DNA of 64,000 nt. Source: Candidatus Latescibacterota bacterium (GTDB taxonomy: Bacteria > Latescibacterota > UBA2968 > GCA-2709665). The stretch lies in NCBI GenBank assembly GCA_965237675.1, contig OZ250150.1:1120001-1184000 (forward strand), given 5' to 3'. A program made the translations under genes and the position numbers. Of this stretch, positions 38,973-43,967 are shown piece by piece (position 1 is the stretch's first letter; each line of letters starts with the position of its first letter). The notes under the pieces were generated by a model. The model had not been told where the DNA came from. It saw only the letters and a list, made by a program, of their open reading frames with translations, and ran no database searches.

Positions 38973-41344
38973 TTTACGACCTCCTCCTGAAGATGGGCAC
39001 TTGCAAACTCGATGGCGTCTTGATCGTATTCCGCGGCTTCGTCGAACAGGCTGCGATCACATAACTTGATCGAGACCGGCAGACGCGTCGCACCTTCCGG
39101 GCGAGTCCAAGTCAGACAGCTAAGTGAAAAAACATCGGACAGGCAATGTTCGAGGGGCATTTCACCAGCCGCGCGGCGGACATGTAGTGGATTGGACGTC
39201 CCCGGAATCCAAAATGGTCTTCCGGTTGTACTTACGAAGCCTTCGTTTGGAGCAGTTTGAATCCAATTTCCGACCAACGGGTTCTCGACATTGATCCCGT
39301 GGGCGTTACCTGAAGGCTTCACATCAAACAGCCGCAGTGGTGCTGGCGCGGACTTGGCTATTTCAACGACTGTGAGCTGCCAGTCCTGGTCGAGTTGCCC
39401 TTCTATAGATAGCCGCCGACATGCTTCTTCTAGCCCTTTGATTTCCGACGGCCATGTCCGTCCGTCGCGATGCACCACGACATGTTTTGGGCGATTGCTC
39501 AAATGGTGTTTTTCTTGGCGGATGAGATCACTCACGAACTGTGTAACTTGATTCTTTAGCAATTGTTCTTTTTGACGGGATGAACTCGTGGAAAGTCTAA
39601 TTATCTCACCTCCATTTGCAATCATCGTGAAGGCAGCGGTGTTATTCTTGACGTCAATCCCGATCACTACATCAGCATGTAACGGTTTATCGAGAATAAA
39701 CGGCCATTTACCATTGGTGAGTAGAATCTTATTGAGCGCGACGTTGCGAAGGTAAGCGAGGAAACGGGCGCGCTCACTTTCCTTTAATCTGTAGCTTGTT
39801 TCGTCCTTTATTGTTAAACTCGCGTACGACTTCCTTGCCATTTGCGTGTGAATAACAGCTGCGTTCAGCCCGAATACATCTGGAAATTCCTTTACGGTCC
39901 ACGCCACCAGTTGATCTTCAGATCTTGTCCGGCGATCATAACGATGCACCATTACGAGAGCGTAGCCTGGCCTGACTCTGGCAGTTTCAACTGCCTTTCT
40001 GATCGCACTCGTCTGACCGACGAAATCACGTTTGAAATTAAGGTCGTCATATACTATCACGTAAGGATTGTAACCACCTCCGTCGGGATAGAGGTTTTCA
40101 ACCTGTTTTCTAAGGTCTTCGAGAAACTTCGGACCATAGCTATTCTCAACACTCTTGGGTAGCACGAGGTATTGCCGATCCAGGAAGTTCTTCACGAAGA
40201 AACCCGCGTTCTCGTCCCCCAATAATGCTAGCCTCTTTCGCCCATAATCTTTAATTGCTAAGTCCGCATCGCGTTCTTTGTCTACAAGGCGTAGCGTTAC
40301 ACCATTTCCAAAACGCAAGTCAGGTGGTAAGAACGGTTTCGTTGTTATACGCCCCGGACAATCCGAAACCGAGAGATTGGCGTCTCTGACCCGCACGCGA
40401 CTCAGAAACATCTTAACGAGTCGTTTAATCTGACTGTGCCGTACTTTAGGTTCTATAACCGTCTCGTGTTGATATTTGGCGCCCTCTCGGGTGTGCGTAT
40501 CTTCGACTAGATGGCAGAGCGCTGCTGGTGCTGAACGTTGTTCCGGTCCATTTGTGCGATAATAAATCGCAGCACCATCTGGCGATAGATTTGCGATCGA
40601 TGGAGGTACCGGTTTGGGTGAAGTTCTGTTTAGATAATCGATCAAACTAACCACTTCTCTCTCAAGTGGTATCGAGGGAGTGCCGATATCCATATCGACA
40701 AGGCCGGAGAGAGTAACCTCGAACCAATTGCGTCCCATCTTATAGACGCATGATCGACCTTTGAGCTCGTTGATCTGCTCTCGCTTCGCTCCCGTTGGTA
40801 GCGGAGATCTCGAGACGAGTTTACGCCGAAGATCTGCTACAAGGCCAAAACCACCCTCTGGGTGTAATACGGTACGCATAGCGAAGCCTTCGTAAAGGTC
40901 AATCTTGCCCAGTTTTTTCTCCGGTTTCTTAAAAAAGAATGGCTGTCCAGCTCCTGGCTGCCAGAGGCGCGAATCCTTCCAGAGCACTCCCTGAAAAATA
41001 AACTGAAGGAAGCGTAAACGGACGGGGTCGAGATCCGGATCGGTCGTTGTGAAATCAAGATCTATTGTCTCTCGAGTGTCTTTCAACGTAACGACGACGC
41101 CAACAAGCATGACAAGATTTGGCGGATCCCCATATCCGGTTGGAATTGCCAAAAAGGCCTCGCTCTTCCTGTCGTAGGTAGTCACCGGTGCCTTCATCTG
41201 AAAGCTCAACTGCCGGATGAGCCGTTGTACATTGGCATAATAGTCTAACCCATCTCTTTGCAGACCAGCGATTTGGTACAGACGGTATGTTGAATTTAAC
41301 GCATCTAAGCCATCAATGCGAAAGCAATTCGTTTCAATAGACAT
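38969..41344 (-). CDS. ago: long prokaryotic Argonaute (791 aa), catalytic tetrad intact
   Basis: PIWI motifs VIGIDV (D), QKEQLL (E), VVHRDGR (D), VEIAKS, GTSNPL, LSCLTW and RLPVSIKLCDR (D); start ATG 41344 (MSIETNCF) has a GGAG RBS and overlaps the cas4-like stop; the ORF-track extension to 41467 runs through the cas4-like tail into the IS. Confidence 0.95.
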   Translation of the reverse strand: MSIETNCFRIDGLDALNSTYRLYQIAGLQRDGLDYYANVQRLIRQLSFQMKAPVTTYDRKSEAFLAIPTGYGDPPNLVMLVGVVVTLKDTRETIDLDFTTTDPDLDPVRLRFLQFIFQGVLWKDSRLWQPGAGQPFFFKKPEKKLGKIDLYEGFAMRTVLHPEGGFGLVADLRRKLVSRSPLPTGAKREQINELKGRSCVYKMGRNWFEVTLSGLVDMDIGTPSIPLEREVVSLIDYLNRTSPKPVPPSIANLSPDGAAIYYRTNGPEQRSAPAALCHLVEDTHTREGAKYQHETVIEPKVRHSQIKRLVKMFLSRVRVRDANLSVSDCPGRITTKPFLPPDLRFGNGVTLRLVDKERDADLAIKDYGRKRLALLGDENAGFFVKNFLDRQYLVLPKSVENSYGPKFLEDLRKQVENLYPDGGGYNPYVIVYDDLNFKRDFVGQTSAIRKAVETARVRPGYALVMVHRYDRRTRSEDQLVAWTVKEFPDVFGLNAAVIHTQMARKSYASLTIKDETSYRLKESERARFLAYLRNVALNKILLTNGKWPFILDKPLHADVVIGIDVKNNTAAFTMIANGGEIIRLSTSSSRQKEQLLKNQVTQFVSDLIRQEKHHLSNRPKHVVVHRDGRTWPSEIKGLEEACRRLSIEGQLDQDWQLTVVEIAKSAPAPLRLFDVKPSGNAHGINVENPLVGNWIQTAPNEGFVSTTGRPFWIPGTSNPLHVRRAAGEMPLEHCLSDVFSLSCLTWTRPEGATRLPVSIKLCDRSLFDEAAEYDQDAIEFASAHLQEEVVK

Positions 41345-41429
41345 ACGGCTTCTCCCAGCAAATGTTGCGAAATGCACAGCGTTGGCAGGTTTCTGCATGA
41401 ACGGCGGTTCGGAAATCTTCGACATATAG
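41334..41429 (-). pseudogene. C-terminal fragment of the Cas4-like nuclease (cut off by the IS)
   Basis: Manual translation (L)YVEDFRTAVHAETCQRCAFRNICWEKPYVY* contains the C-x2-C-x5-C motif. Confidence 0.88.
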
Positions 41430-43117: not shown

Positions 43118-43967
43118 CTAGATCAGTGTATTTCTTTCCTTCGGTCAGACAGGCAATCTCATATGCAGAACTGATCATATATTCTTCAGCTTCTATGATT
43201 TGTTCTCCCCCAAGCGAGTGCTCCCGCACGGCATTGGTCAAGAGTTGGACCTCATAGAGAGCTAACTCTTGAGGTTGTTTTTCAAAGCCAACTGGGAAAT
43301 CCGTATGCGGATTGCAGCGACTGAGTGCAATCGCATATATCGCCAATTGTAACCAGGCATCATGTATACCGAAGGCGTGAACTTTCCAGTCAATGATCGC
43401 CGGTGGAGCATCACTACGGAATGCAATTGCATCCGGATAGGCCAGCACTGTAACGTTGTCCATTAGCGTGAACTGAAGCGCACGTTGTGCCACTATGTAT
43501 TGGGAGGACTTTAGGATACATTTTAAGTCATCGAACGAGAACAAGTTAACGAGAGCGGTCTCGACTTCAGACCAAGCTTGCTCGATTTCACACTCTGAGA
43601 CTTCCATTCCATACTCTATAGCGTGAAAAACTGCGAAATCGTCCCCTTCTCGGGACACTTTAAGGTTTAAATCGGTGATCGGATGACGCCGAGCATAGTC
43701 AAGCTGCCGGTCAAAAAATCGTCTTGCAAGATTCCTTGCATCTCGAAGTGTTACGTAAATACCCCTACTGACGTTTGGTATGATTGATTTTGAAATCACG
43801 TCATCGACAATTCTGCCTCGCCAGGCACTGATGCTTTGGAGCTTACTAAGCAAAAAGGCCCGCTTCCGGAATCGGTCTTTGGCTGTCGCGCTCGCTACGA
43901 CATTTTTGAAATACCATTGTCGCTGGCATTGACGAAACGAACGACTTGCCGAATAGGACCACCGCAT
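43118..43967 (-). pseudogene. Cas4-like PD-(D/E)XK nuclease, N-terminal 283 aa, interrupted by IS1380
   Basis: WSYSASRSFRQCQRQWY (N-terminal Cys), YPD...IIDWK and QLAIYA motifs; the last 12 aa of the ORF-track call are IS-derived. Confidence 0.88.

Follow-up and report, generated by a model that had tools for sequence, protein, structure and literature searches.

A putative ACE2 nuclease gene in a PliAgo-type Argonaute cassette of a Latescibacterota bacterium is split by an IS1380-family insertion sequence

Introduction

Cas4-family enzymes that are associated with prokaryotic Argonautes (pAgos) form two clades, ACE1 and ACE2 (Argonaute-associated Cas4 family enzyme 2), according to the available portion of Bobadilla Ugarte et al. 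2025 (PMC12094033). ACE1 proteins are cyanobacterial and about 278 amino acids (aa) long, while ACE2 proteins have a mean length of 313 aa and carry an insertion of 28-41 aa; both have a D-DxK motif together with one N-terminal and three C-terminal cysteines. In the same portion, ACE1 is described as an endonuclease for single-stranded DNA, one that forms a heterodimer with its pAgo's MID-PIWI lobe and trims the pAgo-bound small interfering DNA (siDNA) guides. PliAgo is catalytically active, pAgos of its group use small DNA guides to cut RNA, and their operons consist of a helix-turn-helix (HTH) regulator, a PD-(D/E)XK nuclease that is distantly related to Cas4 and then the pAgo itself, as far as the accessible text of Lisitskaya et al. 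2022 (PMC9360449) describes them. Here, a cassette of this kind is analysed in which an insertion sequence (IS) of the IS1380 family interrupts the nuclease gene. It lies in a stretch of 64,000 nt (the window) from Candidatus Latescibacterota bacterium (assembly GCA_965237675.1, contig OZ250150.1, positions 1,120,001 to 1,184,000), and all coordinates below are those of the window unless a related locus is named.

The interrupted nuclease gene

The two parts of the gene and the element between them are:

43119-43967, minus strand: ACE2 nuclease gene, codons 1-283, ending ...KKYTDL (PADLOC, Pfam, homologs)
43080-43118, minus strand: reading continues into the IS for 12 foreign codons (ARLIHESSDRAF) up to a stop at 43080-43082, giving a 295-aa product
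43118-43121: target-site duplication, right copy, CTAG (flank reading and frame arithmetic)
41430-43117: IS1380-family insertion sequence, 1,688 bp, with terminal inverted repeats at both ends
41510-42874, plus strand: IS1380-family DDE transposase, 454 aa, intact, the only open reading frame (ORF) of the IS, on the strand opposite to the operon
41426-41429: target-site duplication, left copy, ATAG, the same as in the closest homolog (Tyr284)
41334-41429, minus strand: orphaned 3' end of the ACE2 gene, LYVEDFRTAVHAETCQRCAFRNICWEKPYVY and stop, with C297-x2-C300-x5-C306 and TGA at 41334-41336 (translation, homologs)

As it stands, the nuclease ORF spans 43080-43967 (minus strand, 295 aa), but its homology to relatives ends at residue 283 and the remainder is IS sequence. 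The fragment matches Pfam PDDEXK_1 as well as the PADLOC model Aga_Cas4-like_Nuc (E 9.9e-113), of which it covers profile positions 1-280 of 308. The missing end of the gene is found on the other side of the IS as an orphan tail of 96 nt in front of the Piwi gene. When the IS and one copy of the duplication were removed in silico, either choice of copy gave a frame of 942 nt and 313 codons with a single terminal stop, and the product aligned without gaps over residues 1-313 to the 313-aa homolog P0002, with an identity of 92.3% for the Asp284 variant and 92.7% for the Tyr284 variant. Residue 284 varies among homologs and is Tyr in P0002. The cysteines of the excised product include C14, C297, C300 and C306. 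C14 and the catalytic residues D179, D193-x-K195 and Q207..Y211 all lie within the 283 codons that the interrupted gene retains, so that the 295-aa ORF has C14 and lacks C297, C300 and C306. As these three are reunited with C14 only upon excision, the locus is to be read as a disrupted ACE2 gene and not as a functional member of the clade. The initial annotation, which had proposed that an IS1380 element splits a Cas4-like gene and that its removal restores a 313-aa frame joining the N-terminal cysteine to a C-terminal CxxCx5C, thus holds on all three points, with the break placed after codon 283.

The reconstructed protein resembles its relatives in length and tail. Homology searches gave 469 homologs below E 1e-3, and among the best 120 of these 469 the exact length of 313 aa was found in 69 and CxxCx5C within the last 45 residues in 118; the remaining two are a fragment of 239 aa and P0029, in which Phe replaces the third cysteine. 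The tail is likewise present behind an intact nuclease in 66 of 78 related loci, where tblastn places it directly after the nuclease body. The doubt raised with the initial annotation, that intact homologs might lack CxxCx5C, is thus not borne out. In 34 full-length homologs C14, D179, D193, K195, Q207, Y211, C297 and C300 are invariant and C306 is conserved in at least 90%. The excised product keeps 65 of the 65 invariant and 52 of the 54 near-invariant columns of these homologs, so that the gene shows no further decay. Given this retention and the recurrence of both the 313-aa length and CxxCx5C among homologs, chance is not a reasonable explanation. Since neither fragment of the gene shows further damage, the insertion also appears to be evolutionarily young. 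The description of the event as recent in the initial annotation is therefore supported indirectly by the lack of further damage to the gene, while the one mismatch that the target duplication already contains speaks against it.

The insertion sequence

The IS begins with CCTGAATAATTCA (41430-41442) and ends with TGAATTAATCGGG (43105-43117), the latter being the reverse complement of CCCGATTAATTCA, so that the terminal inverted repeats are 13 nt long and match at 11 of 13 positions. A repeat search returned the inverted pair 41424-41442 and 43105-43123 at the same ends. The flanks read ...ACATATAG to the left of the IS and CTAGATCAG... to its right, which gives a target duplication of 4 bp with three of four positions identical (ATAG and CTAG), and a length of 4 bp also fits the restoration of the frame. 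The left copy, ATAG, is probably the original target sequence because P0002 has Tyr at position 284.

Members of the IS1380 family, such as ISEcp1, are 1.5-2 kb in size, duplicate 4-5 bp of their target, encode one DDE_Tnp_1_4 transposase and have short inverted ends that begin with CC. The element in the window agrees with this description in its single DDE_Tnp_1_4 transposase, its size of about 1.7 kb and its short ends starting with CC, and its imperfect 4-bp duplication would fit it. The transposase matches Pfam DDE_Tnp_1_4 with E 1.7e-156 (521 bits, 3-431 of 435 profile positions) and the NCBIfam model for the IS1380 family transposase (NF033539, transpos_IS1380) with 383.1 bits against a cut-off of 180. 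The element differs from described members in the imperfect duplication and in an identity of only 43-44% to plasmid-borne transposases annotated as IS1380 family, and is an undescribed member of the family. In the protein collection, the transposase is closest to a cluster of 82 member sequences, to which it is 91% identical. The contigs that carry its relatives are in many cases about 1.7 kb long, just like the IS itself, as would be expected of a multi-copy element in short-read assemblies. The IS occurs once in the window and is absent from the 78 related loci.

Assignment of the nuclease to ACE2 and predicted fold

By homology to a listed member, the nuclease of the window belongs to the published ACE2 clade. 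The homolog P0082 (Enhydrobacter WP_085938214.1, 313 aa) is 63% identical to it (E 2.7e-113), and Table S1 of PMC12094033, seen in part, lists this Enhydrobacter protein and a Pseudooceanicola lipolyticus protein as ACE2; the start of P0082 equals the sequence start printed in that table. The gene shares with ACE2/APACE2 systems, as the available portion of that paper describes them, the length of 313 aa (after excision), the D-DxK motif, which is present in the fragment as D179, D193 and K195, the arrangement of one plus three cysteines and a long-A pAgo as partner. It is also co-encoded with its pAgo, whose start overlaps the nuclease stop, and PADLOC reports the two as Aga_Cas4-like_Nuc and pAgo_II. 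What sets the window allele apart from other ACE2 genes is that it is split by an IS and, in its present form, has lost three of the four cysteines.

The fold was searched with an AlphaFold2 model of the full-length homolog P0002 (predicted local distance difference test, pLDDT, 89.1; predicted template modelling score 0.87). Foldseek matched this model to the AdnA nuclease domain (E 3e-7), to ACE1 from two species (CtACE1, 9IAB, and MaACE1, 9IAC; E about 2e-6) and further to Dna2, the Cas4 protein SSO0001, MGME1, Exo5 and AddAB. Iron-sulfur PD-(D/E)xK nucleases dominate the matches of the predicted structure. Dna2 and Exo5 bear such clusters. AddAB, AdnAB, Cas4 and ACE1 are described as cluster-bearing in the accessible part of PMC12094033, which, citing Yeeles 2009, calls the cluster of the AddAB/Cas4 family an "iron staple" that is needed for local structural integrity. 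The window nuclease resembles AddB/AdnA, CRISPR Cas4, Dna2 and Exo5 in its PD-(D/E)xK core and in the combination of an N-terminal cysteine with a C-terminal CxxCx5C, and differs from them in having no helicase fusion and in matching only the generic PDDEXK_1 model; neither the Pfam Cas4 model nor any NCBIfam model matched it. Identity as a CRISPR-associated Cas4 was considered and rejected, as no Cas4 family model of Pfam or NCBIfam is matched and Cas4 structures are weaker fold matches than AdnA and ACE1. Cluster binding and nuclease activity of the intact ACE2 are thus putative, by similarity of the modelled fold to cluster-bearing nucleases.

The Argonaute and the cassette

The cassette of the window consists of five minus-strand genes, of which the four besides ACE2 are, in the order of the operon:

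43967-44362, minus strand: HTH (XRE-type) regulator that opens the cassette (matches Pfam HTH_19/HTH_3 with E about 6e-12)
38969-41344, minus strand: long PliAgo-group pAgo of 791 aa, DEDD tetrad D564/E593/D627/D763 intact (PDB 7R8F, PADLOC)
38607-38972, minus strand: p121, small conserved cassette gene, 121 aa (tblastn in related loci)
37456-38610, minus strand: p384, conserved cassette gene, 384 aa, HExxH (61-sequence alignment)

The pAgo aligns with PliAgo (PDB 7R8F) over residues 1-785 (E 4.8e-208) and matches PADLOC pAgo_II with 1025.6 bits. In the ORF listing this gene spans 38969-41467 (832 aa), with a TTG within the IS as its start. As PliAgo and 29 homologs align from residue 1 of the shorter form, the true start is taken to be the ATG at 41344, giving 791 aa, and the initial annotation was right to regard the 41 additional residues as spurious. 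D564, K566, E593, D627 and D763 are invariant in 30 aligned sequences. The corresponding tetrad of PliAgo is D563/E592/D626/D762, and its group-specific K565, given in the available portion of PMC9360449, corresponds to K566 of the window pAgo, the Lys that follows the first Asp. By homology, the window pAgo would be a DNA-guided RNA cutter of the PliAgo group.

The order HTH-nuclease-pAgo is identical to that described for PliAgo-group operons. The likeness to this 'D-R' operon thus extends from the end-to-end alignment of the pAgo, the DEDD tetrad and the Lys to the HTH and nuclease genes that precede the pAgo gene. Two differences stand against it: the window nuclease is disrupted, and the cassette and its relatives add p121 and p384 to the three genes described in the accessible part of PMC9360449. 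Tightly packed minus-strand genes span 36.8-44.4 kb of the window. The HTH stop overlaps the nuclease start (TAATG), the pAgo ATG overlaps the ACE2 stop by 11 nt (ATG..TGA), an overlap that is the same in 14 related loci, and the pAgo stop overlaps the p121 start (ATGA). The G+C content of the cassette is 47-53%, compared with 57% for the window.

Decay of the cassette in related genomes

The 78 related loci used for comparison came from one scan of genome contigs, in which the best match to the nuclease had 80% identity. The order HTH-nuclease-pAgo-p121-p384 recurs throughout these loci, and an HTH homolog lies directly upstream of the nuclease in most of them. Nuclease homologs of 70-80% identity come from records with the titles Latescibacterota, Nitrospirales, Entotheonella, Binatia, Caldilineaceae, Poribacteria and Alphaproteobacteria, and this spread points to horizontal transfer of the cassette.

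Besides the 66 loci with an intact nuclease, three (L022, L048, L076) have a nuclease that is cut by the contig end, and in nine it is broken or absent. In L020 an insertion of 5 kb (6567-11618) with integrase-core (rve) and AAA genes interrupts it, and L071 has a DDE_Tnp_1 element at nuclease codon 75. In L050 (6001-8063) the nuclease breaks off at residue 284, at a distance of two or three codons from the break in the window, and is followed by an ORF that by eye resembles an integrase-core (rve) transposase; no pAgo was found within 6 kb. The closeness of these two breaks could reflect either coincidence or a preferred target region. The nucleases of L052 and L073 are frameshifted, which may be due to sequencing errors (the record of L052 is titled MinION-only), and that of L060 lies near a contig end and is of uncertain status.

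Larger losses are seen in two contigs of Gemmatimonadota metagenome-assembled genomes, L067 and L068, where a deletion reaches from nuclease codon ~91 to pAgo codon ~764 (39049-43712 of the window). The remnant (6001-6330) is an ORF of 109 aa, and in L067 it joins the nuclease N-terminus to the last ~27 pAgo residues in one frame. When compared with window 32566-51744, both contigs show the same gene order as the window across all of the ~12 kb, including the flanks, with 70-81% nucleotide identity. As the synteny includes the flanks, a loss of nuclease and pAgo that followed another route has taken place at this same chromosomal position in what appear to be relatives of the window organism. 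In L078 (5990-6200) nuclease and pAgo are deleted as well, and HTH, p121 and p384 are kept, as they are in L067 and L068. Other genes of the cassette are also hit: the pAgo carries transposase-bearing insertions in L005 (8173-9088) and L071, whose insertions lie at 4625-6001 and 8026-9348, and p384 has one in L014 (9824-11223) and an internal stop in L036. The elements found in L005, L071, L014 and L020 are IS4/5-like, DDE_Tnp_1, two of the Mutator family and an rve+AAA element. From the comparison of these loci, the insertion in the window is to be seen as one case of a wider decay of the cassette in related genomes.

Consequences of the insertion and alternative explanations

The following course of events is proposed. 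An IS1380-family element would have transposed into the ACE2 gene after codon 283, producing the 4-bp target duplication and parting the nuclease core (C14, D..DxK..QxxxY) from the last 30 residues, which hold three of the four presumed cluster cysteines. If the 4Fe-4S cluster staples the N-terminus to the C-terminus as in Cas4/AddB/AdnA/ACE1-type nucleases, the product that is now made, if any, would consist of 283 native and 12 foreign residues and be unable to assemble the cluster, and for this reason would most likely be unstable or unable to hold DNA. When the 283-aa fragment was modelled, residues 1-30 had pLDDT values of 41/57/67 (block means), compared with 90/91/90 in the full-length P0002 model. 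The low N-terminal confidence in the absence of the tail fits C14 and the tail being held together, but is suggestive only, as the two models come from different sequences (92% identical) and from alignments of different depth (26 and 34 rows).

The intact nuclease would act on single-stranded DNA, making or trimming the small DNA guides that the pAgo uses for RNA cutting. This role, suggested by the biochemistry of ACE1 and of PliAgo, is our preferred mechanism for intact ACE2 and seems moderately probable. The guide-generating function that the initial annotation gave to the nuclease is in the same way plausible by analogy with ACE1. With ACE1/APACE1 the window system shares the fold class, a putative Fe4S4 cluster held by one N-terminal and three C-terminal cysteines and a slicing long-A pAgo as partner. 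In contrast to these likenesses, ACE2 is a clade separate from the cyanobacterial ACE1 and is distinguished by its length and its 28-41 aa insertion (PMC12094033, in the portion available), its similarity to ACE1 is found at the level of the fold and not of the sequence, and ACE1 is paired with a DNA-cutting pAgo, in contrast to the RNA-cutting PliAgo group (PMC9360449, likewise in part). A complex prediction of pAgo residues 400-790 (MID-PIWI) with full-length ACE2 gave a score of 0.00, which speaks neither for nor against binding.

An effect on the genes downstream is also probable. Because neighbouring cassette genes either abut or overlap and the gene of the IS runs on the opposite strand, the insertion probably lowers transcription of pAgo, p121 and p384, which it would cut off from the operon promoter. 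The view in the initial annotation that the other genes remain intact is thus correct for the reading frames of pAgo, p121 and p384, though probably not for their expression. Taken as a whole, the explanation of the locus as a five-gene cassette with an ACE2 gene knocked out by the IS, a guide-related role of the nuclease by analogy and a likely polar effect is one that we hold with high confidence.

Several points weigh against it or against parts of it. The target duplication contains one mismatch (ATAG against CTAG). Every catalytic residue lies in the retained fragment, so that residual activity is possible, and P0029, with Phe in place of the third tail cysteine, indicates that not all members need four ligands. 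Searched by sequence against PDB chains, ACE2 had no match, and a profile search gave only a chance match (E 0.54); there is no solved ACE2 structure, and a literature search found no biochemistry of ACE2 or of a PliAgo-associated nuclease. For the guide-related role, the available text of PMC12094033 itself states that conclusions on ACE1 are not directly transferable to ACE2 systems. As regards polarity, the pAgo has its own ribosome-binding site, GGGAG, 7 nt upstream of the ATG, and a weak promoter-like site in the left end of the IS (41510-41481, 9/12) faces the pAgo, in a scan that found 7 sites compared with 2.8 +/- 1.7 in shuffles. Given the GGGAG and this site, the downstream genes may still be expressed.

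Other explanations of the locus were weighed against the same evidence. Misassemblies are often caused by IS elements, and the frequent occurrence of transposase relatives on contigs of about IS length indicates that such elements collapse in assemblies, so that the junctions could stem from a repeat misplaced into an intact gene; yet a misjoin does not produce a target duplication, and with the complete inverted ends, the flanking 4 bp and the exact restoration of the frame upon removal of the IS, an artefact is extremely unlikely. If the junctions are real, the truncated 295-aa protein might still be a working nuclease, the insertion altering its regulation or the binding of a partner. The break comes after all of D179, D193, K195, Q207 and Y211, the truncated model remains confident in its core (mean pLDDT 81.3), and P0029 does without the third tail cysteine. 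Against this stand the near-universal tail (118 of the best 120 of 469 homologs), the invariance of C297 and C300 in the 34 full-length homologs, the loss of model confidence over the first 30 residues and the structural need for the cluster in the AddAB/Cas4 family (PMC12094033 citing Yeeles 2009, available in part), and we consider a working truncated enzyme improbable.

With the knock-out as the preferred reading, two further alternatives concern what the nuclease did and why it was lost. Perhaps it was an effector triggered by target binding of the pAgo, leading to collateral DNA degradation and abortive infection in a manner similar to the long-B pAgo-nuclease (BPAN) systems. Nuclease effectors have been described for long-B pAgos that are catalytically inactive (PMC10620215 and PMC13535254, in the portions available), whereas the window pAgo keeps the full DEDD tetrad, and is close to the catalytically active PliAgo, and the nuclease falls in ACE2, a clade that associates with long-A pAgos according to the available portion of PMC12094033; such a role is quite unlikely. 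BPAN was rejected as the overall class of the system on the same ground, the tetrad being intact where the class has an inactive pAgo. Alternatively, the disruption could have been selected, with this lineage in the course of losing the cassette because self-targeting or toxicity makes the nuclease and pAgo pair costly. The deletion of both genes at the same site in the two syntenic Gemmatimonadota contigs, their absence from L078 next to a retained HTH, p121 and p384, and the transposase-bearing insertions that interrupt either the nuclease (L020, L050 and L071) or the pAgo (L005 and L071) would fit this. The counts are nevertheless few (three nuclease, two pAgo and one p384 insertion in 78 loci) and are raw numbers from IS-rich genomes, the nuclease is intact in 66 of the 78 loci, and some of the broken loci may represent sequencing errors, as in the MinION-only record of L052. 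Selection for the loss is therefore possible, though somewhat doubtful.

The knock-out itself is an ordinary one, as both the gene family (ACE2 in a PliAgo-type operon) and the element family (IS1380) are already known. In annotation, the nuclease should become a disrupted ACE2 pseudogene and the pAgo start should move to 41344, and surveys of defence systems should not count the system of the window as functional. The locus provides a natural "ACE2-minus" allele beside an intact-looking pAgo, and intact close relatives (for example L001-L004) could be used for the first biochemistry of an ACE2 with an RNA-cutting pAgo. Most worthy of specialist attention are the extra genes p121 and the HExxH-bearing p384, and the repeated decay of the cassette.

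Accessory genes and flanking sequence

The gene p121 is fast-evolving, with tblastn matches in 29 of the 54 loci that have full matches to both pAgo and p384. An open frame of at least 90 codons is present in the 349-460 nt between these two genes in all 54. Pfam, NCBIfam and PADLOC contain no family that matches p121. In p384, residues H156, E157 and H160 (the HExxH motif), E225, D229 and H266 are conserved in 61 of 61 aligned sequences, an alignment from which L036 was left out for its internal stop; in L001 the equivalent gene lies at 9672-10799. These residues make p384 a candidate zinc metallohydrolase. Searches of p384 against Pfam, NCBIfam, PADLOC and PDB, with the single sequence or a profile, returned no match. 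In a protein atlas it falls with unnamed clusters and with Peptidase_U49/M48 clusters at only 0.79, which is a lead only. A literature search for pAgos with a metalloprotease or HExxH found no relevant paper, and p384 is not mentioned in the available portions of PMC12094033 and PMC9360449.

Since p121, p384 and the HTH gene persist where nuclease and pAgo are deleted (L067, L068, L078), p121 and p384 could be a separable unit of a five-gene module, one that outlasts a costly and recurrently shed nuclease-pAgo pair. In that case p384 might have gone unrecognised as an effector or safeguard, such as a Lit-like protease or part of a pair similar to a toxin-antitoxin system, and the IS in the window would be one snapshot of the process. 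We regard this as a speculative and unlikely reading.

Among the promoter-like sites of the region the best, TTGACA-17-TATATT (11/12), is found on the minus strand at 44334-44362, at the very start of the listed HTH ORF, so that the HTH gene may truly start elsewhere than listed, or the operon promoter may not be where the listing implies. On the two sides of the cassette, a DUF123 gene (36832-37455, minus strand; 59% G+C, host-like) begins immediately behind the stop of p384, and a DUF433 gene (44531-44773, minus strand) lies upstream of the HTH gene. Both are present in L067 and L068 and absent from most other loci, so that they are probably host context outside the cassette.

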